From the NCBI GenBank assembly GCA_964016885.1, contig OZ024740.1:206708001-206772000 (forward strand): 64,000 nt of DNA, read 5' to 3'. Source of the DNA: Eledone cirrhosa (lineage: Eukaryota). The notes beneath the pieces were generated by a model. The model saw only the letters and a list, made by a program, of their open reading frames with translations, did not search any database and was not told the origin of the DNA. Both the position numbers and the translations under genes were made by a program. Shown piece by piece: positions 4,717-51,105 of this stretch (position 1 is its first letter; every line of letters starts with the position of its first letter).

Positions 4717-5027
4717 TTAGTTATGTAATAAACAACATAAGATAATTATGTCATTGACCAGCGGTTTCTTGAAAGCAAACAAATCTGCTTTCAGTCATCA
4801 GAATGAAAAAATCCTGGTGTTTTTATTGAATGTGGATTTGAAACCCACATTCAATAAAAACACCACGATTTTTTCATTCTGACGACTGAAAGCAGATTTG
4901 TTTGCTTTCAAGAAACCGCTGGTAAATGAAATAATTATCTTATGTTGTTTATTACATAACTAATAAGCTCTGTAACCTACATAAGGTACTCTTTTTTCCT
5001 GGACCTTTCCGACAGAATTACTTCATT
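4717..5027 (+). mobile_element. Hairpin-shaped Penelope pLTR remnant (inverted arm + arm + unique tail)
   Basis: ~120-bp inverted arms 4717-4837/4843-4963, then a 64-nt tail; same family at 25617-25864; contains hammerhead motif. Confidence 0.75.
4872..4931 (+). ncRNA. Type I hammerhead ribozyme motif (mirror copy on - strand ~4749-4808)
   Basis: Stem I tttcatt/aatgaaa; CTGACGA; stem II tgaaagcaga..tttgctttca; GAAA-CC-gct-GG-TA (GUA site; GUC in the mirror copy). Confidence 0.8.
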
Positions 5028-5061
<34 letters not shown>

Positions 5062-5062
5062 A

Positions 5063-8000
5063 AAAAGTGTGTAATAACTGTAGTTATATATATATAACAG
5101 TGTAATAACTGTAGTTATATATATATAACAGTGTAATAACTGTAGTTATATATATAACATTACACTGTTATATAACTGTAGTTATATATATATAACAGTT
5201 ATATAACTGTAGTTATATATATAACAGTGTAATAACTGTAGTTATATATATATAAGTGTGTAATAACTGTAGTAATATATACAACAGTGTGCAATAACTG
5301 TAGTTATATATATAACAGTGTGTAATAACTGTAGTTATACATATAACAGTGTAATAACTGTAGTTATATATATAACAGTGTAATAACTGTAGTTATATAT
5401 ATAACAGTGTGTAATAACTGTAGTTATATATATAACAGTGTAATAACTGTAGTTATATACATAACAGTGTGTAATAACTGTAGTTATATATATAACAGTG
5501 TAATAACTGTAGTTATATATATAACAGTGTAATAACCGTAGTTATATATATAACAGTGTAATAACCGTAGTTATATTTATAACATTGTGTAATAACAGTA
5601 GTTATATATATAACAGTGTAATAACTGTAGTTATATATATAACAGTGTAATAACTGTAGTTATATACATAACAGTGTGTAATAACTGTAGTTATATATAT
5701 CACAGTGTAATAACTGTAGTTATATTTATAACAGTGTGTAATAACTGTAGTTATATATATAACAGTTTAATAACTGTAGTTATATATATAACAGTGTAAT
5801 AATCGTAGTTATATTTATAACAGTGTGTAATAACTGTAGTTATATAAATAACAGTGTAATAATTGTAGTTATATATATAACAGTGTAATAACTGTAGTTA
5901 TATACATAACAGTGTGTAATAACTGTAGTTATATATATATAACAGTGTAATAACTAGTTATATATATAACAGTGTAATAACTGTAGTTATCTATATAAAA
6001 GTGTGTAATAACTGTAGTTATATATATAAAACAGTGTAATAACCGTAGTTATATATATAAAAGTGTAATAACTGTAGTTATATATATAAAAGTATGTAAT
6101 AACTGTAGTTATATATATAACAGTGTAATAACTGTAGTTATATATATAACAGTGTGTAATAACTGTAGTTATATATATAACAGTGTAATAACTGTAGTTA
6201 TATACATAACAGTGTGTAATAACTGTAGTTATATATATAACAGTTTAATAACCGTAGTTATATATATAACAGTGTAATAACCGTAGTTATATTTATAACA
6301 GTGTAATAACTGTAGTTATATATATAACAGTGTGTAATAACTGTAGTTATATATATAACAGTGTAATAACTGTAGTTATATAATAACTGTAGTTATATAT
6401 ATAACAGTGTAATAACTGTAGTTATATATATATAACAGTGTAATAACTGTAGTTATATATATAACAGTGTAATAACTGTAGTTATATAACAGTGTAATAA
6501 CTGTAGTTATAAATATAACAGTGTAATAATTGTAGTTATACAACAGTGTAATAACTGTAGTTATATAACAGTGTAATAACTGTAGTTATATATATAACAG
6601 CGTAATAACTGTAGTTATATATATAACATTGTGTAATAACTGTAGTTATATATATAACAGTGTAATAACTGTAGTTATATATATAAAAGTGTAATAACTG
6701 TAGTTATATATATAAACGTATGTAATAACTGTAGTTATATATATAAAAGTGTAATAACTGTAGTTATATATATAACAGTGTGTAATAATTGTAGTTATAT
6801 ATATAACAGTGTTATAACTGTAGTTATATATATAAAAGTGTGTAATAACTGTGGTTATATATATAACAGTGTAATAACTGTAGTTATATATATAACAGTG
6901 TGTAATAACTGTAGTTATATATATATAACAGTGTAATAACTAGTTATATATATAACAGTGTGTAATAACTGTAGTTATATATATAAAAGTGTGTAATAAC
7001 TAGTTATATATATAACAGTGTAATAACTGTAGTTATATATATATAACAGTGTAATAACTAGTTATATATATAACAGTGTGTAATAACTGTAGTTATATAT
7101 ATAAAAGTGTAATAACTGTAGTTATATATATAAAAGTATGTAATAACTGTAGTTATATATATAAAAGTCTAATAACTGTAGTTATATATATAAAAGTATG
7201 TAATAACTGTAGTTATATATATAACAGTGTAATAAGTGTAGTTATATATATAACAGTGTAATAACTGTAGTTATATATATAACAGTGTAATAAGTGTAGT
7301 TATATATATAACATTACACTGTTATATAACTGTTATCTAACTGTATTTATATATATATAACTGTTATATAACTGTAGTTATATATAACTGTTATATAACT
7401 GTAGTTATATATATAAAAGTGTTTAATAACTGTAGTCATATATATAACAGTGTAATAACTGTAGTTATATATATAACAGTGTAATAACTGTAGTTATATA
7501 TATAACAGTGTAATAACTGTAGTTATATATATAACAGTGTGTAATAACTGTAGTTATATATATAACAGTGTAATAACTGTAGTTATATATATAACAGTGT
7601 AATAACTGTAGTTATATACATAACAGTGTGTAATAACTGTAGTTATATATATAACAGTGTAATAACTGTAGTTATATATATAACAGTGTAATAACTGTAG
7701 TTATATATATAACAGTGTAATAACTGTAGTTATATATATAACAGTGTAATAACTGTAGTTATATATATAACTGTTTCTACTTTAGGCACAAGGCCAGCAA
7801 CTACCCAGTTCATTACTGGTACTTTATTTTATCAACCCCGTAAGGATGAAAGGCAAAGTCAACCTCGGCGGGATTTGAACTCGGATCGTAAAGGGACGTA
7901 ACTATGCTGTAGTTATATATATAACAGTGTTTAATAACTGTAGTTATATATAACAGTGTAATAACTGTAGTTATATATATATAACAGTGTAATAACTGTA

Positions 8001-8452
8001 GTTATATAACAGTGTCATAACTGTAGTTATCTATATATAACAGTGTAATAACTGTAGTTATATATATAACAGTGTAATAACTGTAGTAATATATATAACA
8101 GTGTAATAACTGCATTTATATATGTAAAAGTGTGTAATAACTGCAGTTATATATATAACAATGTAATAACTGTAGTTATATATATAACAGTGTAATAACT
8201 GCATTTATATATATAAAAGTGTGTAATAACTGCAGTTATATATATAACAGTGTAATAACTGTAGTTATATATATAACAGTGTAATAACTGTAGTTATATA
8301 TATAACAGTGTAATAACTGTAGCTATATATATATATATAAAAGTGTGTAATAACTGCAGTTATATATATAACAGTGTAATAACTGCATTTATATATATAA
8401 CAGTGTAATAACTGCATTTATATATATAAAAGTGTGTAATAACTGTAGTTAT
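5063..8452. repeat. AT-rich ~27-31 bp minisatellite, ~3.4 kb
   Basis: Unit gtgtaataactgtagttatatatataaca with variable (TA)n; interrupted by a SINE fragment at 7771-7907. Confidence 0.95.
7771..7907 (-). mobile_element. SINE fragment inside the minisatellite
   Basis: Family core aaggatgaaaggcaaagtcaacctcggcgggatttgaactc. Confidence 0.8.
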
Positions 8453-8567
8453 AAGTATAAAATCAATCAAAGTGTTAAAAAAACTTTCCTAAGTGGTTCA
8501 AAATTATCCCAACGAATACAAGGCCATCTACAAACACGTGAAAACGACCAAAACTTTCAAATCACCC

Positions 8568-10947: not shown

Positions 10948-11027
10948 ACAGTAGATTTCTTACAAAGAAGGATAGAGTAAGTAAGAGAATGAAAGAGAGA
11001 AAGAGTTATAGAGGAAGAATCGACCCT

Positions 11028-15210: not shown

Positions 15211-15542
15211 GGTCTATTAATTTTTTACATCCACTGGAGAGCAATAGCATTGGTAATTCCCTCACTTGATGCGAAACAGCCTTGCCAAAGACTGTCTGGA
15301 TGTTTGTACCTTTTCTTAATTTATTCCTTTAATTGAGTCTCGCAAACTCGCAAACCGTATTGTTTATAGTTAGTATACTATTCGAATTAGGTCCCTTATA
15401 ATTTGAACACAGATATGTATATATCTGTGTTTATCTCTCTTTATTATATTAAATTATATTACACGGCTCGGAAAATTTTTTCCTTGAGCTATTTTAATTG
15501 TAAGGGACTATATTCTGAGTTTCTATCTCAATATATACTTTT

Positions 15543-19348: not shown

Positions 19349-19391
<43 letters not shown>

Positions 19392-19392
19392 A

Positions 19393-19953
19393 CATAGAAA
19401 GTGTGGTAAGAAACCAGGTGGACCATAACGCACCAGAGTACTCGATACTTAGTGTAGTAAAGTGGGTAATAGGAAAAGAGTCAGGACCCCGACGGCTCAG
19501 CTCCGGCCATTTCGACAGCTAGATCCTATAGCGAGTGTACTGGGTTGTATGAATGTAACAAGGAATACATGGTTTGTGTGTATAATATTTAATTAACAAT
19601 GGTAGATAGTATAGTTGACATGTCAAAGAAATAGATGATAGAATGAAACAAAGTTAGTCGTTACCGTTTTGATTGCCAGGCAAACGCGGCTGGCAGTGGA
19701 CGCCTGGCTAAGGCCAGGCGCCGGAAGGCAAATGAGAGGCTCTTGGCCTGGTGCCGAAAGGGCAATGAGAGAGTGAGAACTTAAAGTTGTTAGTTTTATA
19801 GGGTTCTGACCAGAAGTTACAGAAAGGGTTCTACTTCACGTCTAGATGTTAATCCAAACAAGGGAGACAACCGCTACAATCCCAACGGATCAGTTCGGAT
19901 CTTGCTGTCGAAACGGCCGGAGCTCAGCCGTCGGGGCCCTGACTCTTTTCCTA
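19393..19953 (-). mobile_element. Hairpin-shaped Penelope pLTR remnant interrupted by a solo LTR
   Basis: Arms 19470-19526/19896-19953 plus tail 19393-19469; homologous to 20670-20860. Confidence 0.7.
19527..19878 (-). mobile_element. Solo LTR
   Basis: Termini TGTAGCG...CGCTATA on the minus strand; ATCC TSD (19523-19526, 19879-19882); similar to LTR 52594-53005. Confidence 0.85.
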
Positions 19954-19977
19954 TATATATATATATATATATAGATG

Positions 19978-20028
19978 AGATTCTACAGGACTAGAACTGT
20001 TTCATTCTTTAGAAATCATCAGGAATCT
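19978..20028 (-). ncRNA. Candidate type I hammerhead
   Basis: Minus strand agattc-CTGATGA-tttctaaagaat-GAAAC-agttcta-GTC-ctgta-gaatct. Confidence 0.5.
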
Positions 20029-20064
20029 GGGTATCAAAAAATAAATATGGTATTTATAGGCCTC

Positions 20065-20114
<50 letters not shown>

Positions 20115-20543
20115 GAGGCCTATAAATACCATATTTATTTATCTCCATATTTATTTATCTCCTTATTTATTTATTTATTTATTTATTTACTTCTTTCTTT
20201 CTTTCTTTATTTTATTCTCGCCTAACAATAGCCTGACACCTAGGTCGTAGAATTTAATTTTTTCTTTACACTTATTTGCTTTTCTTCACTCTCAGTATTT
20301 TTTCTTTCCTATTTCTACCCCCATTGTTCTACCTACCGTTCCGACTTCCTCCCCCTCCCCCTCCCCTGTATCTTCTTTGACCTCATGCCCAGCTGTAGCT
20401 GGCACTACCAACGCTTGATTGGGTCTACTCCACCCCCTCCCCTCTTTCTCCTACTGGCAGGTTTAGCCACCATCTCCCCTACTAATTTGCAACCACAGAA
20501 TTACTACTGATTTTTGACAATCACTTTGACCATATATGGAATT

Positions 20544-20637
20544 ACCCCTTGAGAAGATCGGCTATTTAAATACCAGGATAAATGTTCATTTAGTCCAGAA
20601 TTAGCCGTCGAAACGGCTTGAGCTCAGCTGTCGGGGT
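20544..20637 (+). ncRNA. Type I hammerhead, U3-A8 core variant
   Basis: Stem I acccc/ggggt; TTGAGAA; stem II gatcggcta...tagccgtc; GAAA; stem III cggcttgagctcagctg; GUC site at 20630-20632. Confidence 0.78.
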
Positions 20638-20669
20638 CTTACTGGTTCCTATATATATATATATATATA

Positions 20670-20857
20670 TAGGAACAAGTAAGACCCCGACGGCTGAGCT
20701 CAAGCCGTTTCGACGGCTAATTCACAGAATCAGCCGTCGAAACGGCTTGAGCTCAGCCGTCGGGGTCTTACTTGTTCCTATTACCCACTCTACTACCCTA
20801 AGTATTGAGTACTTTGGTGCGTTATGGTCCACCTGGTTCCTTACCACATTTCCTTCG

Positions 20858-20860
<3 letters not shown>
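20670..20860 (+). mobile_element. Hairpin-shaped Penelope pLTR remnant in (TA)n
   Basis: Arms 20670-20722/20726-20780 plus 80-nt tail; carries the 3' half of the hammerhead. Confidence 0.75.
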
Positions 20861-22629: not shown

Positions 22630-25590
22630 TTTATTCAAATGGACATAGCAAGTTACTACTCATCTATTACACCTAACCTCTTGAATAAGGCTTTGTCTTA
22701 TGCTTACAAACATACAGATCTAACTTGCGAGGAGAATAATATCATATTAAACGGCTAGAAGAACCCTAATTAATTTTAATAGGAATAGAAATTTTGACAT
22801 TACCATGGGATCATCTGACTCTGCACAAATTACCGAGCTTCTGGGAATTTTTATCCTCAATATGGTAAATAGAAAATTGCTGGAGATTACCGGTGGTTTA
22901 TATAGGGATGATATTTTATTTATTGTAGTTAAGCATAGCAATACAGAACTAAATAGGTTAAGAAAACAATAATAGAATTCTTTAAAAATTATGACCTCAA
23001 ATTAGAAGTTGAAAGTAGCACTAAAGTAGTTAACTTCCTTGATGTCATCCTTAATTTAAATACAGGACTATATTACCCCTTCCATAAGCCCAATGAAAAC
23101 CTAAATTATGTTAACTATTACTCAAATAACCCTAAATTCGTGAAAAATGCAATAGTCAATAGTGTTCAAAAACGCTCAACTAGATTATCTGCTAACAAAT
23201 CCATTTTTGATGAAAAAGCTGGATATTATAATGAGGCATTACATAAGGCAGGATATAAAAATAATATTGAACATCTAGATAATAGTAATTCGAATTATAA
23301 ATTAGGTAAAAATACGAATAACATAAATAAAGTGGACTCTAAAAATTATTTAAATAGAAATAAAAATACTAATGTCATGAATAAATCTCGGGAAAAAAAT
23401 CAGAACCAAAGCAGTTATTTGGTATGCACCTCCTGCGTCTTTAGCTATCAAAACACCCCTGGCAAATTTATTTTTTAAGGCTTTAGATAAATGCTTTCCC
23501 AGTACACATAAATACCATTCTATATTCAATAGAATTAAGCTATCTTATTCTACAGCTATGAATATGGCCCAGAACATTGCAAAAATAAATAGTAGAATTC
23601 TTAATCATAACCAACAAACAATTAGGGACAATGGCAATATTAACATTAACAATAATATTGATACTATGAATAACAATAACATTAATTTAAGCACTCACAA
23701 TAGAACACCTCCAAGTATTAGCAGTGATAACGTGTACAGTTTAAATTATAGTAATAACAGTAAATCGAAATGTAACTGCAAAATAATTGTCTTGATAAGA
23801 ACCTAGTTTATAAATGTACCGTTAAAACAAATAACACCACCTACAACTATATAGGTGCAACTTCATCGAGCTTTAAATTAAGATATTCGAATCACAAACA
23901 CTCTTTTTCGAATCCGGATAAGAAATTCTCAACCTCTTTATCACAACTTATATGGTCCTTAAAAGACAAAAATTTAGAGTACTCAATATTTTGGTCAAAA
24001 CTTTGTAATAGCTAAGTCTACGTAAATTCCTCAGTATAACCTAACTGCAATCTTTGCGATGAGGAGACCCTATTAATAATTACTAATTATGATAACTTAA
24101 TTAACAAAAAACGTGAATTATTCTCAAATTGCTTGCACAAAGCTACATCTACATTCCAAGCTTCAGAAAAAATCAGGAAAAAACATTGAATAAATGTGAA
24201 ATGATTTAGACGTTTATTAATAACTCTGAGCGTGAAACAATATTGTCTCAGATTAAAAATTCTTGTAATGCTTTTATTATTTATACTATTATTATTAGAT
24301 TAAGGGTTTCTACCTTAACATCGAAATTGTTAACCTGATCTCTTGTTGAGTACCTATGACCTTTTGATTGTTTAAATACATTTAATTTTGGTTTTTGTAT
24401 TTTCTAAATCTTATATCTTATATATTTCATACCTCGAATGTATTCAGACTTGTAAACCGTTTAATTACTTTGAATGGTTGTTTATGATTCACGAGGATAT
24501 GATTATACATTTATAGTATAAAAGTCTCCTTAGATCCAAGTTGATACATTTCTTTATACTTAAATTGATGTAAAATTTTAAATGCAGTAAAATATAGTTG
24601 AATCAAATTTATAACACTCTTAACAATAATTATACTATATATAAGTGACTAATATCATTTTAAACCTTAAACTTTATAGTCTATATATAAATTATACAAA
24701 TGTGTATATCTAGATAAATCTGGTTTAATAATATCTTATTAAATACATTTATACATCTTAATTTTAATGTTTTTTAACTAATAGATTGATTATATTCTTA
24801 ATTTTAATATACTTTTAAATATACTTGTGATTACCTTTGGAGTTATGATAAACATAAATTTATCTCTTTCGCGTTACATTTGCTTGAACTCTGATATAAT
24901 ACAATAATATAAATCCTTTAAAATTTTATAATCTAAAATCTTATGTAATTTGATTAATTGACTATTTCTATTTAACTTAAGATTTGAAAATAAATGGTCA
25001 CGCATCATGTGCCTAAATACCCCCCCCCCCTATCTAATTATACGCTATTTATATGTTACAATGCATATCTTCCTCCCTTTGTTTATATGATTAAACTTAT
25101 TTTCCTCTCTCTATCATTTGATCATTTCTCCCTTCTCTTGTTCCTACGATCAAATCTCCCTCCTTTTCTCTCTTTCCTCATGATTTGCGATCTCTCACTT
25201 CCACTATCTACAATAATGAGGTATGCATATATTATTATTATTTAAATTTTTAACAGTTATATAAGTTTATTTATTATATATTATTAGTTATTTATATATC
25301 TTTATACACGTTCTCATACGCACCCTCTGTATTATATGTAATTTTTCATGTTTCAACTTAAAGTATATAAATATTGAGTTTTGTCATAACTAATCACTGC
25401 CATGACTAAATTATAACCATCAACATAGTCAAGGTATGTCAGGCATCAGCTTATTTTATCTGATGAGGACGTACTGTTGAAATAGCTCAGTACCTCTGAA
25501 ATATGTATAATAAAATATATTTGATCACATGAATGTCTATATATATATATATATATATATTACTTCATAATTACTAAACGGACTACCGTC
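22630..25590 (+). mobile_element. Penelope-like element (AT-rich), degenerate RT + GIY-YIG with long 3' UTR/pLTR
   Basis: FDITMGSSDSAQ, GLYRDD, FLDV motifs at 22790-23050; NLVYKC...YIGATS...RYSNH endonuclease at 23800-23900; hammerhead at 25452. Confidence 0.85.
25452..25517 (+). ncRNA. Type I hammerhead ribozyme motif
   Basis: Stem I tattttat/ataaaata; CTGATGA; stem II gtactg/cagtac; GAAA-tatgta-TA. Confidence 0.75.
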
Positions 25591-25864: not shown

Positions 25865-27384
<1,520 letters not shown>

Positions 27385-28284
27385 TATTAAATATTTACTC
27401 TACGGTTCTTATATATTTGATATATATTTATCCTTATCGAGCCCTCTTTGGATTTTAGTCTTCAAATTTATTATTATTACTATATATATATAATATTGTT
27501 ATCATCCCTAACACTCGCCTGTCTGTCATCCTCCTAACTGCTATCTCCTCTTTCTCTCGCATCCTTCGCCCTGCCTTTTCCACCCCCTGGCTTGACCTTC
27601 TTGACCACTTCCTGTTGCGCGCACACCCCCACAACTCTCTACTTCCTCCGCACTATTCCACGGATTCTACATAACTGGTCACACGCTCCAGACATCCACC
27701 TTCTTATACTCGGATTTTTCACCATCTGTTGATATACTCACCGGGAAAACATTCAGGAACACACACACTTACACTATCTTCGCAACACGCAACCATACGG
27801 TCCCACGTATCCACACCACACAAAACACGCACACACACGTGCGTATCCTCACATACACATACCCGGCCTCCGGACTCCGCACGGCTCCACTTTCCCACCC
27901 CTCCGACCCCTCTCCATCCAAACGCACACACTGACTTACACCCCACCCCATGTACACACTGTTTTCCTATTACCTAAATATGGAACCTCGTTCATCCCCA
28001 AACTCTCACACTCACATCCACACATCCACACACACACGTACATATACACACACACACCACCTTCCGCCCTTCCCGTTCGAACCCCCTGTCTCCTTCTCCC
28101 CTCCCCTCCATCCACCCACCACCACCCCCTACACGCCTCACACCATTTCACCACTTGCTTCATTTGAATTTTTTTTACCCTCTTTTTAACTTTTTTTCCT
28201 TCTTTTAAATTCCCCCTCCCCTTTTACTGTCTTTCCACCACTCCCCCTCACACCCTCGGAACTGTTTTCCTCCCCACTTTTCTC

Positions 28285-28312
28285 CTGATAAAGGGCTTAT
28301 GCTCGAAACGTC
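28285..28312 (+). ncRNA. Minimal PLE-type hammerhead, probably inactive (CTGATAA)
   Basis: ctgataa-a-gggc-ttat-gctc-gaaacgtc at the end of a pyrimidine-rich PLE-like UTR; relative at 38100. Confidence 0.5.
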
Positions 28313-28578
28313 GTCCCCCACCCCTACTCTCAAGCGTGAACCTAATACTAACACTGTTTTTACTGTACTCTTCGTTATTGTTTTTGTTTTTTGTTTTAAC
28401 TTATACATCTATATATATATATAAATACCCCCTCCGCCTCCGTGGTATTTTCTTTGGGGTTATAAGAGGCTTAGCTCTGTTTCTCGACCGTTATATCGCG
28501 TGACTATCTCCCCCTCCGCCTTTTGGGATTCTTTCTCACGTCGTGTAGACGCGTTCTTGAGACTAGTAAAATGAGGAA

Positions 28579-28668
28579 TCCTCTTGATAAGTCGGCAGAC
28601 CTCGCAAGGACTCTATATCTTTATGATGTATTATTTTTGTTTATGCCACGAAACTACGTAGTCGAGGA
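28579..28668 (+). ncRNA. Type I hammerhead, U3-A8 variant (copy 1)
   Basis: Stem I tcctc/gagga; TTGATAA; stem II gtcggca...tgccac; GAAA-ctacgtag-TC. Confidence 0.78.
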
Positions 28669-29171
28669 ATCTAGGAGCAGTTTAGGTATGATACATTTTA
28701 TTACTAATTATATCTAAATGTTTCTTCTCTCTTCATAATGTATTTTTAACTCTGATACTGGTTCAGTCTAGTTCAACCGGATTGGTCTGTCCCAGTCATT
28801 CATTGAGCAACATCGGTGAAGTTGGCACCCTTAACTCACGGTTGGGTGCGGATGCATTCATGTATATGTGTGTGTCCGCATGTATCTGTGTGTTTCTAAA
28901 TATATTGTTAATAACTCCCTCTGGTCGAGCAATCTTTGAAGTGTGGGGACTGCTGGAAAGCTTCCATTACTCATACTTCTCGCCTCCTTCACCACCTCTT
29001 CTACGGCTTCGATATACATACCCCCTCCGCCTCCGTGGTATTTTCTTCGGGGTTATAAGAGGCTTAGCTCTGTTTCTCGACCGTTATATCGCGTGACTAT
29101 CTCCCCCTCCGCCTTTTGGGATTCTTTCTCACGTCGTATAGACGCGTTCTTGAGACTAGTAAAATGAGGTA

Positions 29172-29261
29172 TCCTCTTGATAAGTCGGCAGACCTCGCAA
29201 GGACTCTATATCTTTATGATGTATTGTTTTTGTTTATGCCACGAAACTACGTAGTCGAGGA
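29172..29261 (+). ncRNA. Type I hammerhead, U3-A8 variant (copy 2)
   Basis: Same core and stems as 28579-28668. Confidence 0.78.
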
Positions 29262-29330
29262 ATCTAGGAGCAGTTTAGGTATGATACATTTTATTACTAA
29301 TTATATCTAAATGTTTCTTCTCTCTTCCTA

Positions 29331-29444
<114 letters not shown>

Positions 29445-33272: not shown

Positions 33273-33379
<107 letters not shown>

Positions 33380-33784
33380 TGGTTACACAACAGTTAGTTC
33401 ACCATACCGAGAACAATTGTTTCACCTTAGCGGATCCTCAGCTTGTAATGGACATGGTTATACGGAACAGGAAGGACAACCGTACGAACGCGCATGCGTA
33501 GAAACGATCACTTCACACAGGCAATACTAAAATGCGTGCGAGAGGTGTAAGGGAGATAACTGTGAAAGTCCGAAAAGTTTCTAGTTGATAAGAACATTAG
33601 GATGTTGTTGTAATTCAATCCGGAGCTTTGTAGTTACGTAAGAGGTGTTTCGAGACGTGTGGACAACGTGTGAAGAATTCATTTTTCGTGTTTAGGCAAT
33701 CGCTATTGCCGGAAAACCCGCCTCTTCAACGACGGAGTAGCCTGGGCAAAGAAGTCAACAACTTCAGACCTATTCGACGTCTCC

Positions 33785-34950
33785 ATGGGATCGTTTGACA
33801 GTGCTGACGTATGCGACTTGGTTGGTCTATTTATTTTAGACATATTACGTGTTAGATTCCCGGACTTCCACACGGGAATATACCGTGACGATGGACTGAT
33901 TTTATCGAGCCATAAAAGTGGTCACGACCTTGACTGGTTTAAAAAAGACTTAGCTTCTACCTTCAATGAGTTAGGACTTAGGATAACAGTAGCTACCAAC
34001 CTCTCTAGCGTATATTTCTTAGACATTAATTTAGACCTTCGCACACACACCTACAGACCCTTCCATAAGCTAAACGAAAAACTCAATTACATTCACAAGG
34101 ACTCATGCCACCCTCCCACTGTATTTAGAAACTTCGTAAATAATATAAGTACTAGAATCTCAAACATCTCCTCTAATAAGGCTATCTTTGACAGGGCGGC
34201 ACCCTCCTATAACACGGCGTTAGCTAACAGCGGCTTCTCGCAACCTATCAGTTACTCTCCCACTATCAACAACAGCAATAAGAAAAGAAAACGTAACAAT
34301 AAACAAACTATCTGGTTCTCTCCTCCCTTCTCACTCAACGTTAAAACCAATGTAGGCAAAACATTTCTAGCCCTCTTAGATAGACACTTTCCCATACGTC
34401 ATAAATACCGCTCCATCTTTAACCGACACAAAGTTAAACTAGGATACTCCTGCGCTAAGAACATGAAGGCCCACATCACCAACAGCCCTAAGAGCAACAC
34501 TCCACCAGGGTGCTCTTGCCGTAAGCCCGAAGCTTGTCCCCTTCAACAGCAATGTAACACACCCGCTGTAGTTTATGAAGCTGTGGTCACTTCCAACCGA
34601 CCAAATCAGCCACAAGAGGTCAAATCCTATGTGGGTATGGGGAGGGCCGATTTAAGGAACGCTTCCTGAACCACCAGTCTACCTTCAGATACCCGGAAGA
34701 CATTCATCCACGAAACTCGCGAGCCAAGCCACGTATGGTCCTTCAAGGACTCAAGTATAGACTACTCCATTCAATGGAAAGCCATCACTAAGTCCAAGCC
34801 ATACGCAAGAGGAAATCCGTCGTGTGGACTATGTATTGATGAACGAATAAATATTCTAAAGAGATTATGCAATAGCGATTGCCTAAACACGAAAAATGAA
34901 TTCTTCACACGTTGTCCACACGTCTCGAAACACCTCTTACGTAACTACAA
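33785..34950 (+). pseudogene. PLE reverse transcriptase C-terminal part + GIY-YIG endonuclease (frameshift near 34650)
   Basis: MGSFDSADVCDLVG, GIYRDDGL, FLDI, CSCRKPEACPL, VVYEA..SYVG. Confidence 0.9.
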
Positions 34951-35126
34951 AGCTCCGGATTGAATTACAACAACATCCTAATTTTCTTATCAACTAGAAA
35001 CTTTTCAGACTTTCGCAGTTATCGCCCTTACACCTCTCGCACGCATTTTAGTATTGCCTGTGTGAAATGATCGTTTCTACGCATGCGCGTTCGTACGGTT
35101 GTCCTTCCTGTTCCGTATAACCATGT

Positions 35127-35176
35127 CCATTACGAGCTGAGGATCCGCTAAGGTGAAACAATTGTTCTCGGTATGG
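35127..35176 (+). ncRNA. Minimal type I hammerhead in pLTR (mirror copy ~33402-33451, minus)
   Basis: ccat-ta-cgag CTGAGGA t-cc-gctaa-gg-t GAAA caattg TT ctcg-gt-atgg; palindromic stem III. Confidence 0.7.
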
Positions 35177-35265
35177 TGAACTAATTATTGTGTAACCACT
35201 TCTACCTAACTCGTCCCATGGACTGAGTGCTCTACCACTACGGATATTACCTTCCAGTGTTCTAC

Positions 35266-40030: not shown

Positions 40031-41825
40031 ATGGCCGAAGCTTCTTCACCAAAATTCGAAGGAGGAAAGGGGAAGATGAACTTACAGCTTCCCCCTGCCA
40101 CTGTCACAGTAGCAGAGGTCAAGAAGAAAGGTCAGCCAGAGGAAGAATTCTCTCCACCTGTTAACCGACAACTTGACGTTGCCATGGCAACAACCCAAAG
40201 AATCAGCAGCAACAGCAACAACAACAACAATGCGACGGACGAAAACAACACCAATAACAATAACAATAACAACAACAACAAGACCAATAACGGTGACAAC
40301 AACAACAATGATAACAACAACACCACCAACGACAACAACAACAACACAAACAAACAAAATTTCTCCTTCGCCGAGACGACAAGGAAAACCCTCGACTATC
40401 TGCCAGTAGATATAACAAAAGCGAAGGAGCTACTGGCGGATGCGAAAAAATATATAGTGTACGGGGAAAATGGTTCATTCACAATCCATTCCCCCCCGGA
40501 ACTAAAAAGCCAGAGACTCCTAAACACGGTCATGTTTAGGACAATCTCGAACAAAAGTAAAAAACCAGCTCAACCATCACAGAGCGAGATAGAGCTGGTT
40601 TTAAAAGACGTCATGAAGGACATCACCTTCATTCAGAAGGATAGACTCTACGGGAGTCTATCCATTCTCATGAAGGACAGGGACACAGCAGTGAAACTGT
40701 CCATCAAACCAATCACATCCACCGCATACACCTTCTACCCTACGTACATGGGTAGAAGAACACAAAAAATAAAAATCCACACCATCCTGCCGATTATGGA
40801 CATATGGTGGGTTTTGACAGGTTTTCTGGACCTGGAGGATGACATGCTGGTGTCCATGGGAAAGGCATCGGGTGACGCGTTCAGTGGAACGAGCCTCGAA
40901 CTTGTAGTTCAAATGAGGCCCGAAAGGATCGCCCAGATCCCTGAACGCGTCATACTGGATGATCTAACCTTCATCAACATTACCGTTGAGGGTAGACGGC
41001 CCTCGTGTTACCTCTGCGGAACCAGAGGTCACCTGAGGGCTGTCTGTCCCCAACTTAATAAGAAAACCCCAATCCTGCCTACACCACCAACAACTGCACA
41101 ACCAACACAATCACCACAACTACCACTACAAAAACAACCACCACAGCTCAAACCAAAACAAAACAATGTCCAACCCATCCCCTCCACTCAAAAAACAAAA
41201 ACAATTTCCAAAACACCCGTACCGCAAACACAACCCGAAAATATACCCCTCCCCTCCAACGCGGAAGATGACCCTAGTTCGTCGTCAGACGAGGAGGAGC
41301 ACTTCCACACAATCAAAAGAAAAAAAAAGAAAACACACCTCAGACACACAAATGAAAAAAACCCCTCCCCAAAACATAACACTGACACCAACACAAAAGA
41401 GCTCACAACAGCAAACAAAAAACACCACACAAAAACAAAAACATGCATACACATACATAAATACAAGAAACAAAAAACTGTTAAACATTGTGTACAACAA
41501 CAATCTAATAAAAACACAAGGGCCTAACTTCACCCAGGCAGGGGATTTCCCCCACCTCAAAATGATTAAGGCCCCACAGGACACCTATAAAACTTTAAAA
41601 AACAATTTTAAAGAGGACGTGGGTCCCCCCTGCGTCGGGCCCATTAACCGCGTCCTCCTAAAAAACTATCCCACCCCCTCCCCAAACACCCACACAACTC
41701 CAAGCTCCCCAACCACACAACACACTGATGCCCCCACACTTCCACAAACCACCACCCCACCCAACAACCCATCCCCCACCCTAATGGAAATTGTGCAGCC
41801 CGATACCCGGGACGCAGAGAGGTAA
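40031..41825 (+). CDS. Tx1 ORF1 (zinc-knuckle protein), one frameshift in the A-rich linker
   Basis: CYLCGTRGHLRAVC knuckle; the C-terminus homologous to the second element lies in frame 41166-41825. Confidence 0.82.
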
Positions 41826-41849
41826 GTGCCTTTTCTCTTCACCACCAAC

Positions 41850-44800
41850 ATGGCTATGCTAAGAGTAGGCTGTTTAAATGCGCGTGGCCTGGGCTCAACT
41901 TGGAAGCAAGCAATGCTTCTAAATGACCTCAGGTCACAACGTATAGATGTGATGGTTATTTGCGAGGCCCGGATCAGCAACGTGCGACAGCTGGCCCCCA
42001 CCTTTGATGACTTTGAGATGCACGCATCTCTCTGTCAGCCCGGAGGTGGGGGTGGAGTTGTCGTTCTGCTGCAAAAACATCTGGGTCTCGCAACACAGAT
42101 GGTACATTTGGACCCGGAGGGTCGACTAGTGGTTCTGGACCTTGGCAGTGGTAAAGGCGGAGCGTTTAGGTTGGTAGCCGCCTACGGCCCTTTCGGGTCA
42201 ATGCGGCCGGACTTCTTCCATCGTCTGGAGACTTTTCTGGGGACGTCCCGCTCCTTGCTATTAGTGGGGGACTGGAATGGTATCCTAGATGCACGCTGGG
42301 ACTACGTAGGGGCCTGTCCCGATAGAGAGGGGTGTAATAGCCTCAAAGGGTTAATCGGTCGATTTGACCTGGCCGATAGATATCGACTAGATTTTCCGAC
42401 TGCGCCAACCTGGACTTGGGCAAATCGTAGCGGATCATCTAGGTCGTACCTAGATAGGTTCTTAGTTAGAATTAAGGATAAGGACTTTTTAAGTTGTCCA
42501 AAAATGCGCATGGTTGGCTATTCAGACCACAAATTAGTGACCTGCATGGTCAACCTTGACAGAACTCATAGACAGGGCCCCGGTTACTGGAAGCTCAACT
42601 TGTCCTTGCCGGCAAGTAGAGCCTACAGGAATCGGATTAGTACGTTAGTTAAGGAACGGTTGACTGGAGCGATCGTCAACAGCAGGTGGTGGGTATCTCT
42701 AAAGAGAGAGATTAGAGTAGTCTCGATAGAATTTAGTAAGGTTCTAGCTGCGGATAGGAATAGGAAGGAAAGGGAGCTAATAGATAGAGTAGAAGAGGCA
42801 ATTAGAAGCGGCGACGTGGCCAGAGTGCTAGCGTCGAGAACGGCTTTGAGCCAGTTTTTCGACGCGAAGCACGAAGGCTGCGTTGTCCGAAGTAAAATAC
42901 GTGCTCTAGGGAACGAGGGGACCAAAGCTGTTAGCTGGGCCCGCGTGACAGAGGCCAACAGTGGAACTAAATCCACCATCCGGTCTTTGCAAGACCTGGA
43001 TGGACGGGCGATTCTTGAGCCTAAGCAGATGTGTGAGGCCTTTCAAAGGCACTTTGCCCGACTGTTCGGGAGGGGCGGGGAGCCGGTTGGGAACGTGGAC
43101 TTCGGTCCATACCTCGACGGCCTGCCGCGCCTCTCGGACAGGGAGGCGAAGTCCTGCGAGGAGCCGATTTCGGCCGCTGAGATAGAGGACGTGCTGAGCC
43201 AATGCGGCAAACGCAAATCCCCGGGTCTCGATGGTCTTCCTTACGAATTATATCTAGCTATGCCGGACTTGTTCCCCGATCTCCTCGAGGCGGTCTACTG
43301 CAACTGGCAACAGAACGGGAGAATTCCCTGTACTGTGACCAAGGGCGTAGTCACGCTAGTGAGGAAGGACGAGAACAAGGGGGACGAAATAAGTAACTTC
43401 AGGCCCATAACTCTGCTAAATACAGAGTTACAGATTTTGGCCAAGGTGCTAGCAAAGAGGTTGGCGCTTGTCGTGGGCAACCTGGTGGGAGATGCGCAGA
43501 CATGCGCTATCCCGTCCAGGTCCATCCATGACAACCTCCACCTCATGCGATACATCATAGAGAGGGTTGGGAACGAACCCGGCTTTGGTGGGGCTCTGAT
43601 CAACTTGGATCAATCTAAGGCGTTCGATAGGGTCGACCATGGTTACCTGGATGCGGTGCTAGCGGCGGCAGGCTTCGGACCCGTTTTCAGGGGCTGGATC
43701 ACTGCTATGCACAGCAGCCGCATCTGCTCTAGGGTCAAGGTGAACGGCTACCTCTCGGAGCCGTTCAAAATCGCGCGGTCCATCCGACAGGGGTGCCCTC
43801 TCTCCTCCCTTCTGTATGTGTTGACTCTCGAGCCACTACTGCGGAAGTTGGAGTTGTTGCAGGGCATCCCTTTGGAACCGGGATTGCGGAAAGCGGTGTC
43901 GGCCTACGCCGATGACGTGACAGTAATGGTGTCGACGGCCTCCGAAATCGAGGCGGTCGGCACCTTACTGGAGGAGTACGAAAAGTTCACAGGGGCTAAG
44001 CTGAACCGGGACAAGTCGATCGGTTTGCAACTCGGCACGTGGAGGGGCAGACCGATGCCCTCCGATGGCGTCGTCGGACGCTGGACGGAGGGCCCGGTGA
44101 AGTTGCTCGGGGTCTGGTTCGGACCGGACCTCCAGGTGGAGAAAAACTGGGCGGAGGTTACGAACAGGGTGTTTGCACTGACCCAGAAGTGGGCCAGTTG
44201 CAAACTATCCCTGAAAGGTCGGGCGGAGGTGGCGAACACCTACATAGCGTCCGTCATCTACTACCGCCTGACCGTAGTGCCCTGCCCAAGGGAAACCCTC
44301 ACCAAGATGGAGCGCGCGCTCTTCCAATTCCTTTGGAAGAGGCGGGCTCCTATGGTGAGGAGATCCATCTGCTGTCAACACCCTTCGAAAGGAGGGCTGG
44401 GGATGCCGTGGCTAATGATGCGTAAACACGCATTAAGGCTACGGCACCTCTACGTATTCCTCACCGGACAACCGGTGTGGGCCTCGTTTGTGAGGCGAAC
44501 CTTTCCCAGACTCGTCTCACTCACCGAGCTGCAATCCTGGGTCAAGCAAAGACCGAGAAAACTGGGCGCCTGGCACACTGAGTGTGCCCAGGCGCTCACC
44601 GCCCTCTGGCAGGCGGATCCGGTTATCAGTGGAGACTCCACCGCAACATTCTATAGAGGGCTGGTACGCAGCAGGTGCGACGACGCCCTCGGAGAAGCCC
44701 TAGACATGGAGGAGGACGAACTAGCCAGCCTGTTCGGTAGGACATTCAGCCCGGGACCTATGGACAACTTCCAGAAGTCCCTGGCCTGGCAGTGCTACCG

Positions 44801-45287
44801 AGGGGCTTTACCCGTTCGAGAAAGGCTCTACAGACACGGGCGCCCGGGTAGGGACCCCGCCAAAAAGATCTGTCCCAGATGCGTGTGCGACGAGGAAACC
44901 GTTGCACACGCATTGGTACACTGCTCGGGCGTAGCCGATCTGTGGGGCTATGTCGAACAACTGCTGTCAAGGGTGGGACCGATCCGGTTGACCACCGAGT
45001 CTATTGTAATGATCAAGCCGCCTCCCCCCTTCAAAGATGAAGCAGAGGCGGTGTTTCTGTGCGTAATAGCCATGGCGAAAGAGGTTGTATGGTGGACGCG
45101 TCTGAAAGGACTGAGGTCAGGCACCTTTCTCTCTGGCCAACAACTGGTCCGTTTCTTCCGATATCATTTCGGAAGAAGGATCAGGATGGAGAGAGAGGTG
45201 CTGCACCCCAGCCGTTTCTATGAAAGATGGGTGAAAGTGGCGAGAATGGCCCGTGTGAATGGGCCTTCACTCTACATCAGACTATAG
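41850..45287 (+). CDS. Tx1 ORF2: APE endonuclease, reverse transcriptase, C-terminal zinc finger; intact
   Basis: LNARGL, GDWN, YLDRFL, SDHKLV; KSPGLDG, FRPITLLN, DQSKAFDRVDH, IRQGCPLS, YADD; CPRC..ETVAHALVHC. Confidence 0.96.
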   Translation: MAMLRVGCLNARGLGSTWKQAMLLNDLRSQRIDVMVICEARISNVRQLAPTFDDFEMHASLCQPGGGGGVVVLLQKHLGLATQMVHLDPEGRLVVLDLGSGKGGAFRLVAAYGPFGSMRPDFFHRLETFLGTSRSLLLVGDWNGILDARWDYVGACPDREGCNSLKGLIGRFDLADRYRLDFPTAPTWTWANRSGSSRSYLDRFLVRIKDKDFLSCPKMRMVGYSDHKLVTCMVNLDRTHRQGPGYWKLNLSLPASRAYRNRISTLVKERLTGAIVNSRWWVSLKREIRVVSIEFSKVLAADRNRKERELIDRVEEAIRSGDVARVLASRTALSQFFDAKHEGCVVRSKIRALGNEGTKAVSWARVTEANSGTKSTIRSLQDLDGRAILEPKQMCEAFQRHFARLFGRGGEPVGNVDFGPYLDGLPRLSDREAKSCEEPISAAEIEDVLSQCGKRKSPGLDGLPYELYLAMPDLFPDLLEAVYCNWQQNGRIPCTVTKGVVTLVRKDENKGDEISNFRPITLLNTELQILAKVLAKRLALVVGNLVGDAQTCAIPSRSIHDNLHLMRYIIERVGNEPGFGGALINLDQSKAFDRVDHGYLDAVLAAAGFGPVFRGWITAMHSSRICSRVKVNGYLSEPFKIARSIRQGCPLSSLLYVLTLEPLLRKLELLQGIPLEPGLRKAVSAYADDVTVMVSTASEIEAVGTLLEEYEKFTGAKLNRDKSIGLQLGTWRGRPMPSDGVVGRWTEGPVKLLGVWFGPDLQVEKNWAEVTNRVFALTQKWASCKLSLKGRAEVANTYIASVIYYRLTVVPCPRETLTKMERALFQFLWKRRAPMVRRSICCQHPSKGGLGMPWLMMRKHALRLRHLYVFLTGQPVWASFVRRTFPRLVSLTELQSWVKQRPRKLGAWHTECAQALTALWQADPVISGDSTATFYRGLVRSRCDDALGEALDMEEDELASLFGRTFSPGPMDNFQKSLAWQCYRGALPVRERLYRHGRPGRDPAKKICPRCVCDEETVAHALVHCSGVADLWGYVEQLLSRVGPIRLTTESIVMIKPPPPFKDEAEAVFLCVIAMAKEVVWWTRLKGLRSGTFLSGQQLVRFFRYHFGRRIRMEREVLHPSRFYERWVKVARMARVNGPSLYIRL

Positions 45288-45551
45288 GTGAGGAAGATGA
45301 AAGACCAAGGGAGCACCCCTTCTCTGTGCTCCTGAGGAGAAGGGTTGCACACTTTTTTCGGGGGTGTGTGCGACCCCCCAAGGCGCCTCCTCTCTATTGA
45401 GGATTTTGTTAAAAATTTTATTTTTTGTTATATCTTATTTTATTTTTATATTTTGTTATTGCCTCCTCCTTATTGAGGACGCCTTTTTGTGTAAACTCCC
45501 CCCTTTGTACTTGTCCCACTTTTGATGCCCTAGTGGCAAATAAAAGAAACA

Positions 45552-45614
<63 letters not shown>

Positions 45615-45625
45615 TAAATAAAGAA

Positions 45626-45715
<90 letters not shown>

Positions 45716-45716
<1 letters not shown>

Positions 45717-46910
45717 CTTTGGAAGAGGCGGGCTCCTTTGGTAAGAAGATCCATCTGCTGCCAACACCCTTCTAACGGAGGGCTGGGGATGCCGTGGTTG
45801 ACGATGCGCAAACACGCGCTCAGGCTGCGGCATCTCTACGTATTCCTCACCGGACAACCGGTGTGGGCCCCGTTCGTGAGGCGAGCCTTCCCACGACTCG
45901 TCTCACTGACCGAGCTGCAGTCCTGGGTCAAGCAGAGACCGAGGAAAATGGGCGACTGGCACATCGAATGTGCTCAGGCGCTCACAGCCCTCTGGCAGGC
46001 GGACCCGGCGATCAGTGGAGACTCCACTTCGTCATTCTATAGAGGGTTGGTCCGCAGCAAGTGCGACGACGCGCTCGGTGAAACTCTAGGCGTGGAGGAA
46101 GATGAACTGGCCAGTCTGTTCGGTAGGACCTTCCGCCCGGGACCGATGGACAACTTCCAAAAGTCCCTGGCCTGGCAGTGCTACCGAGGAGCTCTACCAG
46201 TTCGAGACAAGCTCTACAGACATGGGCGCCCGGGCAGGGACCCTGCAAAAAAGATCTGTCCGAGGTGCGTGCGAGACGAAGAAACCGTCGCGCACGCATT
46301 CATACACTGCCCGGGCGTCACTGACCTGTGGGGCTATGTAGAACGACTATTGTCGCGGGTGGGACCAATCCAGTTGACCACCGAGTCCATTGTCATGATC
46401 AAACCGCCACCCTCCTTCAAAAACGAAGGAGAGGCGGTTTTCCTTTGTGTGATAGCTATGGCGAAAGAGGTTGTATGGTGGACAAGGTTGAAAGGGCTGA
46501 GGTCAGACACCTTTCTCTCCGGCCAACAACTGATTCTTTTTTTCAAATACCACTTTGGAAGAAGAATCAGGATGGAGAGAGAGGTGCTGTACCCCAGCAA
46601 GTTTTATGAAAGGTGGGTGAAAGTGGCGAGAATGGCCCGAGTGAATGGGCCTTCTCTCTATATCAGCCTGTAGGTTGAGGAAAAGGAGGAGGAGAGGAAA
46701 GGAGTACAAGCTCTTCGTACTCCTGGAGATGAGGGTTGCACATTTTTTTCGGGGGTCTGTGTTACCCATATAAACTGTCTCCCTCTATTGGGGAAAATCG
46801 ACTAACTTTTAAATTCCATCTGTGATAACATTTTACACGTTTTTATTGTATGTAAACTTCCCCCTTTGTATTTGTCCCCTTCTTTTGTGCCCCTGTGGCT
46901 AATAAAGAAA
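45716..46910 (+). mobile_element. 5'-truncated Tx1 copy
   Basis: ORF 45738-46673 matches the ORF2 C-terminus; ends aataaagaaa + (TCTA)n. Confidence 0.93.
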
Positions 46911-46925
46911 TATATCTATCTATCT

Positions 46926-47825
46926 ATCAGTGGAGACTCCACTTCGTCATTCTATAGAGGGTTGATCCGCAGCAAGTGCGACGACGCGCTCGGAGAAACT
47001 CTAGGCGTGGGGGAAGACGAACAGGCCAGTCTGTTCGGTAGGACCTTCCGCCCGGGACCGATGGACAACTTCCAAAAGTCCCTGGCCTGGCAGTGCTACC
47101 GAGGAGCTCTACCAGTTCGAGACAAGCTCTACAGACATGGGCGCCCGGGCAGGGACCCTTCGAAAAATATCTGTCCGAGATGCGTGCGAGACGAAGAAAC
47201 CGTCGCGCACCCATTCATACACTGACCGGGCGTTACCGACCTGTGGGGCTATGTAGAACGACTATTGTCGCGGGTGGGACCAATCCAGTTGACCACCGAG
47301 TCCATTGTCATGATCAAACCGACACCCTCCTTCAAAAACGAAGGAGAGGCGGTTTTCCTTTGTGTGATAGCTATGGCGAAAGAGGTTGTATGGTGGACAA
47401 GGTTGAAAGGGCTGAGGTCAGACACCTTTCTCTCCGGCCAACAACTGATTCTTTTTTTTCAAATACCACTTTGGAAGAAGAGTCAGGATGGAGAGAGAGG
47501 TACCCCAGCAAGTTTTATGAAAGGTGGGTGAAAGTGGCGAGAATGGCCCCCAGTGAATGGGCCTTCTCTCTATATCAGCCTGTAGGTTGAGGAAAAAGAG
47601 GAAGAGAGGAAAGGGGTACAAACTCTTCGTACTCCTGAAGATGAGGTTTGCACATTTTTTTCGGGGGTATGTGTTACCCATATGAACTGTCTCCCTCTAT
47701 TGGGGAAAATCGATTAACTTTTAATTTACAATTGTGATAACATTTTACACGTTTTTATTGTATGTAAACTCCCCCCACCTTTGTAATTGTCCCCTTCTTT
47801 TGTGTCCCTGTGGCTTATAAAGAAA
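46926..47825 (+). mobile_element. 5'-truncated Tx1 copy (disrupted)
   Basis: Homologous to 46011-46910; (TCTA)n on both sides. Confidence 0.93.
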
Positions 47826-47845
47826 CATATCTATCTATCTATCTA

Positions 47846-48661
47846 GAGGAAGATGAACTGGCCAGTCTGTTCGGTAGGACCTTCCGCCCGGGACCGATGG
47901 ACAACTTCCAAAAGTCCCTGGCCTGGCAGTGCTACCGAGGAGCTCTACCAGTTCGAGACAAGCTCTACAGACATGGGCGCCCGGGCAGGGACCCTGCAAA
48001 AAAAATCTGTCCGAGGTGCGTGCGAGACGAAGAAACCGTCGCGCACGCATTCATACACTGCCCGGGCGTCACTGACCTGTGGGGCTATGTAGAACGACTA
48101 TTGTCGCGGGTGGGACCAGTCCAGTTGACCACCGAGTCCATTGTCATGATCAAACCGCCACCCTCCTTCAAAAACGAAGGAGAGGCGGTTTTCCTTTGTG
48201 TGATAGCTATGGCGAAAGAGGTTGTATGGTGGACAAGGTTGAAAGGGCTGAGGTCAGACACCTTTCTCTCCGGCCAACAACTGATTCTTTTTTTCAAATA
48301 CCACTTTGGAAGAAGAATCAGGATGGAGAGAGAGGTGCTGTACCCCAGCAAGTTTTATGAAAGGTGGGTGAAAGTGGCGAGAATGGCCCGAGTGAATGGG
48401 CCTTCTCTCTATATCAGCCTGTAGGTTGAGGAAAAGGAGGAGGAGAGGAAAGGAGTACAAGCTCTTCGTACTCCTGGAGATGAGGGTTGCACATTTTTTT
48501 TCGGGGGTATGTGTTACCCATATAAACTGTCTCCCTCTATTGGGGAAAATCGACTAACTTTTAAATTCCATCTGTGATAACATTTTACACGTTTTTATTG
48601 TATGTAAACTTCCCCCTTTGTATTTGTCCCCTTCTTTTGTGCCCCTGTGGCTAATAAAGAA

Positions 48662-48829: not shown

Positions 48830-48831
<2 letters not shown>

Positions 48832-50880: not shown

Positions 50881-51105
50881 ATTATTCCGTTTGGAACGAT
50901 ATATATAAATATAAATTTAGCGAGAATCGCATTTCGGCGGGTAGAAATTAGCGAAACGCAACTTTCGTATTGTGTATTGTGCAGACAAGCGCTCCATGGA
51001 TATGAAGAAGATACCGGAGCTATAAACATAAGTTAAAATGGTCATACACGCTGAGACGATGGTTAAGAAGCCATTAACCACCTTAGCCAAAAAAGCGAAC
51101 AAGCT

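Follow-up and report, generated by a model that had tools for sequence, protein, structure and literature searches.

The window analysed here, a stretch of 64,000 nucleotides from Eledone cirrhosa, contains repeat copies that look like hammerhead ribozymes except at two positions of the core. The core of the hammerhead consists of C3 U4 G5 A6 N7 G8 A9, of G12 A13 A14, of the pair A15.1-U16.1 and of H17, a numbering and consensus that agree with the published ones (PMC3088659, PMC4209133). In three places on the plus strand the first part reads UUGAGAA (20549) or UUGAUAA (28584 and 29177) instead of CUGANGA, exactly where a first-pass annotation had located these cores and interpreted them as a compensatory exchange of the C3-G8 pair for U3-A8. 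The locus raises the question whether these motifs are hammerheads at all, to which kind of element they belong, and whether the exchange of both bases is an inherited property of this element or the result of decay.

Anatomy of the two U3-A8 motifs

The motif of the first family (family A) extends from 20544 to 20637 on the plus strand, as delimited by its sequence, by a descriptor scan with shuffled controls and by folding. Stem I is formed by 20544-48 (ACCCC) and 20633-37 (GGGGU), and the core UUGAGAA occupies 20549-55, with U3 at 20549, A8 at 20554 and A9 at 20555. Stem II (20556-63 / 20603-09) has 7 bp and one bulged U; it is followed by GAAA at 20610-13, of which 20610-12 represent the GAA of the core, and by a stem III of 6 bp (20613-18 / 20626-31). 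Cleavage at the GUC site is predicted after C17 at 20632. In the minimum free energy (MFE) fold, stem I is extended to 20538..20649, where 20538-43 pairs with 20644-49 past a 6-nt bulge (20638-43). A bulge in the extended stem I lies at the usual position of the contact between loop I and loop II. Loop II itself (20564..20602, 39 nt) folds into a distal hairpin at 20576-20596 that is weakly above chance, since 37 of 500 shuffles fold as well. Loop III contains an 8-nt palindrome (20619..20626), the central hexamer of which is kept in four of the five family copies, and an intermolecular stem III duplex is calculated at -26.3 kcal/mol vs -4.9 kcal/mol for the hairpin.

The MFE fold of 20530-20655 is the hammerhead junction of family A (P ~0.47). 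A rival hairpin at 20603-18 (P ~0.16) pairs the downstream strand of stem II with the upstream strand of stem III, because both stems repeat the same pentamers. The hammerhead is less stable than the MFE fold by 1.9, 4.6 and 4.7 kcal/mol in three longer contexts and by 29.9 kcal/mol once the adjacent inverted copy is partly included. If the locus is transcribed as a whole, the antisense arm would probably block the ribozyme, unless cleavage occurs co-transcriptionally. A pseudoknot between loop II and bases 3' of stem I, noticed by eye, was rejected, since two further A copies have another base at the pairing position.

The second family (family B) is represented by an element at 28419..29336 (+) that lies between (TA)n tracts and consists of a 325-nt repeat, a 268-nt spacer and a second 325-nt repeat, each repeat with one hammerhead. 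The first one (28579..28668, +) has the core UUGAUAA at 28584-90, stem II at 28591-97/28644-49, GAAA at 28650, a palindromic stem III at 28653-62 and a GUC site with C17 at 28663. The second one follows 593 nt downstream (29172..29261, +), with the core at 29177-83, GAAA at 29243 and C17 at 29256. Both copies have the layout UCCUC, UUGAUAA, 7 nt, 46 nt, 6 nt, GAAA, CUACGUAG, UC, GAGGA. The distal hairpin within the 46-nt loop II is well supported in family B, as 14 of 500 and 0 of 500 shuffles fold as well. As a monomer, stem III of family B has 3 bp; it is a perfect 10-nt palindrome and thus suited to dimers. The monomeric hammerheads have low probabilities (P 0.011 and 0.002). If the two copies are transcribed in tandem, folding as a double hammerhead gains 10.4 kcal/mol over two monomers in cis and remains 4.3 kcal/mol above the MFE.

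In both families every conserved core base is canonical except for positions 3 and 8, and G10.1-C11.1, A15.1-U16.1 and the GUC site are all present. Stem II is also built alike, with two pairs, a bulged pyrimidine and then four to five pairs, and the distance from A9 to G12 amounts to 54-59 nt. The annotation had described stems I-III and the GUC site as intact, which applies to the GUC site, to stems I and II and to the 6-bp stem III of family A, but not to the 3-bp monomeric stem III of family B. Similarly, the stem II loops are as long as had been estimated (~35-50 nt), but they are not plain loops. Because of the distal hairpin predicted within it, the long loop II would be better called an extended, interrupted stem II.

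A search permitting U3-A8 was carried out with a descriptor in which positions 3 and 8 were free. It yielded eight matches in the window, five with C3-G8, three with U3-A8 and none with a mismatched pair. Family A scored 44 and family B 36, and matches with a score of at least 34 occurred in none of 60 shuffled windows (500-nt blocks, dinucleotides preserved), in which U3-A8 matches of any score had a mean of 0.017 per window. A looser scan, run without shuffle control, gave 12 matches (eight C3-G8, three U3-A8 and one U3.C8). The U3.C8 candidate at 15403 is AU-rich, has no G10.1-C11.1 pair and was rejected as a false match; three candidates of the first loose scan (36192, 52034 and 33224) failed the scored scans. 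The fold energies are no better than those of shuffles, with z values from -0.75 to +0.40 for the A and first B stretches and of -0.95 for the second B stretch. A pattern scan of GTDB with the A motif resulted in two matches; both lie within ORFs on one strand and do not fold as hammerheads, and we attribute them to chance.

Rfam searches with the entire window and with the two motifs revealed no hammerhead family, only AT-repeat hairpin noise. That searches for CUGANGA miss these motifs is true of plain strings. Rfam, however, also missed every canonical hammerhead of the window, so its failure to report families A and B is not specific to the changed core.

Penelope-like element context and possible kinship of the families

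By every testable feature of their sequence, the motifs of families A and B qualify as type I hammerheads at the ends of Penelope-type elements, a setting that the annotation had overlooked. We consider it very probable that they are the hammerheads of pseudo-LTRs of Penelope-like elements (PLEs), from a lineage in which U3-A8 has been fixed instead of C3-G8. PLEs are typically recognised by tandems that are only partial, by copies that are inverted and truncated at the 5' end, by a tail of 30-40 bp that may or may not be present and by a bias for (TA)n (PMC8557442). Family A is present in five copies within 19381-20860; four of them start only within loop II and are without the 5' core half. 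An inverted, 5'-truncated copy (20670..20723, -) reaches from the 3' strand of stem II to the short end and sits tail-to-tail with the full copy across (TA)n at 20650-20669. A direct, 5'-truncated copy (20725..20860, +) carries an optional tail of ~80 nt that ends at (TA)n. The two remaining copies, both truncated and without a core, belong to a subfamily A', one with the long tail (19381..19526, -; 87% identical to A) and one with the short end (19897..19950, +).

Family A thus has two fixed 3' ends at (TA)n, the same two are reused by subfamily A', and the 3' ends of all A, A' and B copies adjoin (TA)n. The two fixed ends match the PLE tail (PMC11167929) and the inverted 5'-truncated A copies match the published description of PLEs (PMC8557442), and both therefore support the assignment, with the tail in A and A' being longer (~80 nt) than the 30-40 published. 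The tail of PLEs has been traced to two start sites of reverse transcription, and extension on both target strands has been shown (PMC11167929); by analogy, such an extension would explain the tail-to-tail arrangement in family A. Family B shows a partial tandem only, without inverted truncated copies. A type I hammerhead near the 3' end with a palindromic helix III is also PLE-like, the palindromes in question being 20619-26 and 28653-62.

Upstream of the family A hammerhead lies a pyrimidine-rich region without an ORF (20112..20543, +). Its 5' boundary is uncertain, because one arm of a perfect inverted repeat around (AT)n (20039-20140) enters it; the other arm leads to a canonical hammerhead at 20022 (-). 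When the region upstream of A and the spacer of B were translated in all six frames and inspected by eye, no PLE-like ORF attached to either family was recognisable, and one frame of B had no Pfam match. Such an absence would be expected if the copies are 5'-truncated or non-autonomous.

PLE-type coding sequences are found elsewhere in the window. Matches to RVT_1 and GIY-YIG were obtained in 2 of the 11 proteins covered by the Pfam scan. The fragment 49016-50740 (-) matches RVT_1 at 49415-50740 (E 1.8e-5) and GIY-YIG at 49016-49411 (E 0.0025), both below Pfam's cut-off. The reverse transcriptase-type ORF 33674-34666 has no Pfam match and 147 homologues, the three species-named ones being from Hydra, Nematostella and Holothuria. 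As judged by eye, its element ends in a canonical hammerhead-like motif at 35137; an inverted copy marks the 5' end, and (TA)n tracts flank the element. Altogether, three frameshifted PLE-type coding remnants can be recognised, namely 22700-25540 (+), 33374-35204 (+) and 48830-50920 (-), and the hammerhead of the element starting at 33374 has the 'tgaa' layout tabulated for Hydra-clade PLEs (PMC8557442).

The number of independent U3-A8 cases is smaller than the three cores suggest. The two B copies differ at 6 of 325 positions and, judging from this, are one tandem duplication rather than independent instances. In family A, differences among the copies amount to 3 of 57 and there is one complete core with U3-A8. 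Since the B core is duplicated and the complete A core is single, the window contains at most two independent cases of U3-A8, which do not support the retention throughout both families that the annotation implied.

Nor are the two families clearly unrelated, as their description as dissimilar had implied. The A segment 20351-20447 aligns ungapped with the B segment 28428-28524 at 54 of 97 positions, and the same bulged stem II occurs in both. This number of identities was reached in none of 300 global and none of 300 block shuffles, and the diagonal is the best of 276 window segments (runner-up: 49 identities). The plain local alignment score of A and B is weaker, with 8 of 1000 and 10 of 1000 shuffles as high, and the aligned segment is C-rich. 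A distant relationship between A and B is therefore suggestive only. Because of the colinear upstream segment and the shared layout of stem II, a single inherited change to U3-A8 appears at least as likely as two independent ones.

A link to the cephalopod Naiads did not emerge. Two exact 13-mers were absent from the consensus files of Naiad, Chlamys and Hydra in the PMC8557442 supplement, in which line breaks could hide a match, and A and B bear no resemblance by eye to the 3' ends given there for Naiad_Obim, Ovul, Omin, Esco and Adux. The cephalopod Naiad ends (Naiad_Obim, Naiad_Ovul and Naiad_Esco) show by eye a GAAA-closed helix with CUGAUGA downstream, i.e. the reversed order, and the nematode consensus preceding Naiad-2_Nbra shows CUGAGGA, a 5-bp helix spanning ~40 nt and GAAA (PMC8557442). 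These ends could represent hammerheads that are permuted or have a long stem II, in a clade reported to have no canonical hammerheads.

Precedents for the core and for the long stem II

The U3-A8 core is an already described variant, also in PLEs, and cannot be regarded as novel, contrary to what the annotation had implied. As early as 2011, several natural hammerheads were reported in which C3 and G8 have changed together to U3 and A8, and U3-A8 was called compensatory and active in vitro with reference to Przybilski & Hammann 2007 (PMC3088659). The variants of Perreault et al. 2011 show the same covariation as A and B, and the available text of that paper does not describe a long stem II or PLE termini for them (PMC3088659). 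Cervera & De la Pena arrived in 2014 at a U3-A8 variant through the Cercyon PLE of Schistosoma mansoni and obtained ~1,300 matches with a dedicated descriptor (PMC4209133). Together with the anatomy of the motifs, these natural and in vitro data (PMC3088659, PMC4209133) support the compensatory U3-A8 reading well.

The rows Sm3 UUGAUAAA and Sm4 UUGAAAAA in Fig. S3 of PMC4209133 have U3-A8 cores and stand beside an S. japonicum motif in which C3-G8 is combined with a similar stem II. Sm3 even has the same seven core letters as family B (UUGAUAA). Like A and B, these minimal hammerheads of Schistosoma are of type I, with a helix I of 4-5 bp and a palindromic helix III region, and Sm4 is marked as PLE-associated, which corresponds to the context of A and B (PMC4209133). 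In contrast to Sm3 and Sm4, A and B have no extra nucleotide after A9, have a bulged stem II and possess a real stem III (6 bp in A, a 10-nt palindrome in B). The distance from A9 to G12, read by eye, is ~12-21 nt in Sm3 and Sm4 and 54-59 nt in A and B (PMC4209133).

A long loop II also has a precedent in PLEs. In File S2 of Craig et al. 2021 (PMC8557442), the hammerheads of PLE-X1_sMoe and PLE-X1_sTam have a long loop II like A and B; that of PLE-X1_sMoe comprises 35 nt, with ~53 nt across stem II, and both hammerheads are marked there as deviating from the canonical form. Unlike A and B, both have a C3-G8 core, and they are spike-moss EN-minus elements that target 28S rDNA (PMC8557442). The closest comparison within the window is given by its canonical hammerheads, for example those at 25460, 25715, 35137 and 37270, which share with A and B the type I topology, (TA)n targets, inverted truncated copies and a palindromic stem III, but differ in having C3-G8, an A9-to-G12 distance of 12-31 nt and an AU-rich stem I.

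Each single feature of A and B thus has a precedent; the combination of features and the possible 593-nt retrozyme-like unit are modest additions. The combination of U3-A8 with a stem II of 54-59 nt was not found in the mainly open-access literature, and Lunse et al. 2017, cited in PMC6765202 on PLE hammerhead variants, may cover such cases. The main text of a paper on Octopus vulgaris repeats, as far as available, does not mention hammerheads or ribozymes (PMC13282606). A recent PLE survey searched for the core string cuganga with a spacer of 7-17 nt (PMC8557442). U3-A8 with a long stem II escapes such a search, and under the more far-reaching reading set out below, some repeat families regarded as ribozyme-less may carry an active ribozyme. 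If A and B are active, counts of hammerheads in animal repeats that are based on CUGANGA and short spacers would be too low. The core change itself is not new, since it was predicted from the structure, is active in vitro and occurs in nature, including in PLEs. If active, A and B would add a natural 3-8 covariation with full stems and a very long stem II, and they would be useful for testing how far the periphery of the hammerhead can be stretched.

Proposed mechanism and competing explanations

According to the reading as PLE hammerheads, the transcript of the element would fold into the three-way junction, U3-A8 would retain the tertiary 3-8 pair, and the RNA would be cut 3' of GUC, i.e. 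after 20632, 28663 and 29256. It is established for hammerheads that bases 3 and 8 pair in the Watson-Crick manner, that cleavage is lost when either is changed alone, and that it returns with a compensatory pair. Family A should be able to fold as a monomer via its 6-bp stem III, and in family B the 10-nt palindrome most likely joins the two tandem copies into a double hammerhead. The core may tolerate the additional 39-46 nt of loop II as a peripheral insertion. A PLE protein with reverse transcriptase and GIY-YIG domains would spread the copies into (TA)n tracts and would begin reverse transcription at one or the other of two fixed positions 3' of the ribozyme. Like other animal PLE hammerheads, for which a dimer mode has been proposed and slow or poor cleavage in vitro has been reported (PMC4209133), those of A and B probably cleave slowly or with the help of a protein.

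The strongest competing explanation concerns family B only and is a refinement of the PLE reading that is compatible with it. Family B may be a non-autonomous non-LTR retrozyme, the 593-nt unit of which is released by two cleavages, circularised and reinserted by a PLE reverse transcriptase as a copy longer than the unit; we regard this as a serious possibility, yet one falling somewhat short of an even chance. The unit between the predicted cleavage sites extends from 28664 to 29256, has a GC content of 43% and is present in ~1.55 tandem copies with two complete hammerheads and no ORF found. Comparable features are known from metazoan non-LTR retrozymes, whose tandem units are non-coding and carry one type I hammerhead apiece, with a GC content under 45% and a dimer-type stem III (PMC7229834; bioRxiv 10.64898/2026.07.22.740005). 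Folded as a circle, the B unit reaches -174 kcal/mol (z -5.2, 0 of 60 shuffles as low), and this stability is strand-specific, the reverse strand having a z of -0.4. The signal is modest, however, since z values of -5.2 or below also occur in 4 of the 21 length-matched controls covered (out of 24 listed), and stems I and III of the hammerhead are absent from the circular MFE fold. The length of 593 nt lies within the published range of consensus lengths of 51-972 bp (bioRxiv 10.64898/2026.07.22.740005) but exceeds the 170-400 nt of typical retrozyme units, which have canonical cores (PMC7229834), whereas B has U3-A8 and 1.55 units at one locus. Moreover, a partial tandem of two 5'-truncated PLE ends yields the same layout.

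It is also possible that the motifs are heritable and were once functional but are now vestigial or dispensable, with transposition proceeding independently of cleavage and with U3-A8 and the long loop II reflecting relaxed selection on speed. Mutants of the Anolis PLE hammerhead left insertion in vitro unaffected, and cleavage required protein (PMC11167929); animal PLE hammerheads cleave poorly in vitro (PMC4209133), and competing folds are predicted for both A and B. Nevertheless, a Watson-Crick 3-8 pair has been kept through two transitions, with the rest of the core intact, in two otherwise diverged families. This argues for selection on the fold and makes the vestigial state, in our opinion, rather unlikely. 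The importance of the 3-8 pair is illustrated by another PLE hammerhead, in which the single mutants C3G and G8C are dead and the C3G/G8C double mutant partly rescues (PMC11167929).

A third explanation, according to which ordinary CUGANGA hammerheads in dead copies decayed at random after their insertion and thereby underwent C3U and G8A, appears very improbable. Both changes are transitions, singly mismatched cores do exist in the window (28285, C3.A8; 25983, C3.C8) and family A has a single complete core. The copies differ by only 2-5%, however (6/325 in B, 3/57 in A), and the specific double change, which we estimate at ~1e-4 to 1e-3 per copy, would be required in both families. In addition, both B copies carry U3-A8, and no U3-G8 intermediate passed either scan. 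Finally, a chance arrangement in low-complexity DNA, to which the unremarkable fold energies, the AU-rich false match at 15403 and the matches of the A pattern in two bacterial coding genes would point, is largely refuted and extremely improbable, since none of the 60 shuffles reaches the scores of A and B and since all five copies of A and A' retain the 3' half of the motif, at the usual position of PLE hammerheads.

A more far-reaching version of the PLE reading would regard A and B as two branches of one undescribed, recently active, (TA)n-targeting PLE lineage, in which U3-A8 and a branched stem II of 54-59 nt are fixed. Family B would be a non-autonomous member of it, and cleavage by its double hammerhead would give rise to a circular RNA of 593 nt. 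The extra arm would serve to bind a protein or act as a folding switch and would not be neutral filler. We put this forward tentatively and consider it doubtful in this complete form.

Other hammerheads and repeats of the window

Canonical CUGANGA hammerheads of type I number at least eight and at most 13 in the window, and several of them have a stem II of 9-11 bp. Eight C3-G8 motifs passed the scans, at 4801 (-), 4879 (+), 25460 (+), 25698 (-), 25715 (+), 37270 (+), 37887 (-) and 20022 (-). Reading by eye covered ten sites, which divide into five C3-G8 cores with weaker helices (27074, 33441, 35137, 38100 and 17487), two cores with a broken pair, two that had already been counted and one without a core. 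The broken-pair cores are the C3.A8 motif at 28285 (+) and the C3.C8 motif at 25983. The former stands at the 3' end of the repeat fragment 27400-28410, directly upstream of family B, and is probably a decayed canonical copy.

Overall, the window is rich in repeats (92 TRF rows). A 60-nt satellite with 9.5 copies occupies 1-568, and an AT-rich array of 29/60/89-nt units extends over 3.4 kb at 5054-8460. The segment 8600-9192, one of the control windows, has a fold z of -18 and probably represents an inverted repeat of considerable length. A sequence labelled by eye as solo-LTR-like (19527-19878, -), with short inverted ends and the same four bases on each side, separates the inverted A' fragments, between which it is inserted; it has relatives at 52604-52744 and 51116-51217, and the relative ending near 52590 is followed by a sequence resembling a primer-binding site. 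A dispersed SINE-like family, which we take to resemble the SINEs of Octopus, occurs at 11025, 11578, 18154, 30655, 35651, 36434, 36835, 54549 and 56005. L1/Tx1-like LINEs with ORF1 are located at 40031-48424 and 60300-64000 (+), and an L1/Tx1-like endonuclease-reverse transcriptase ORF of 1153 aa (41826-45287) is intact and followed by three tandem duplicates of the 3' end.
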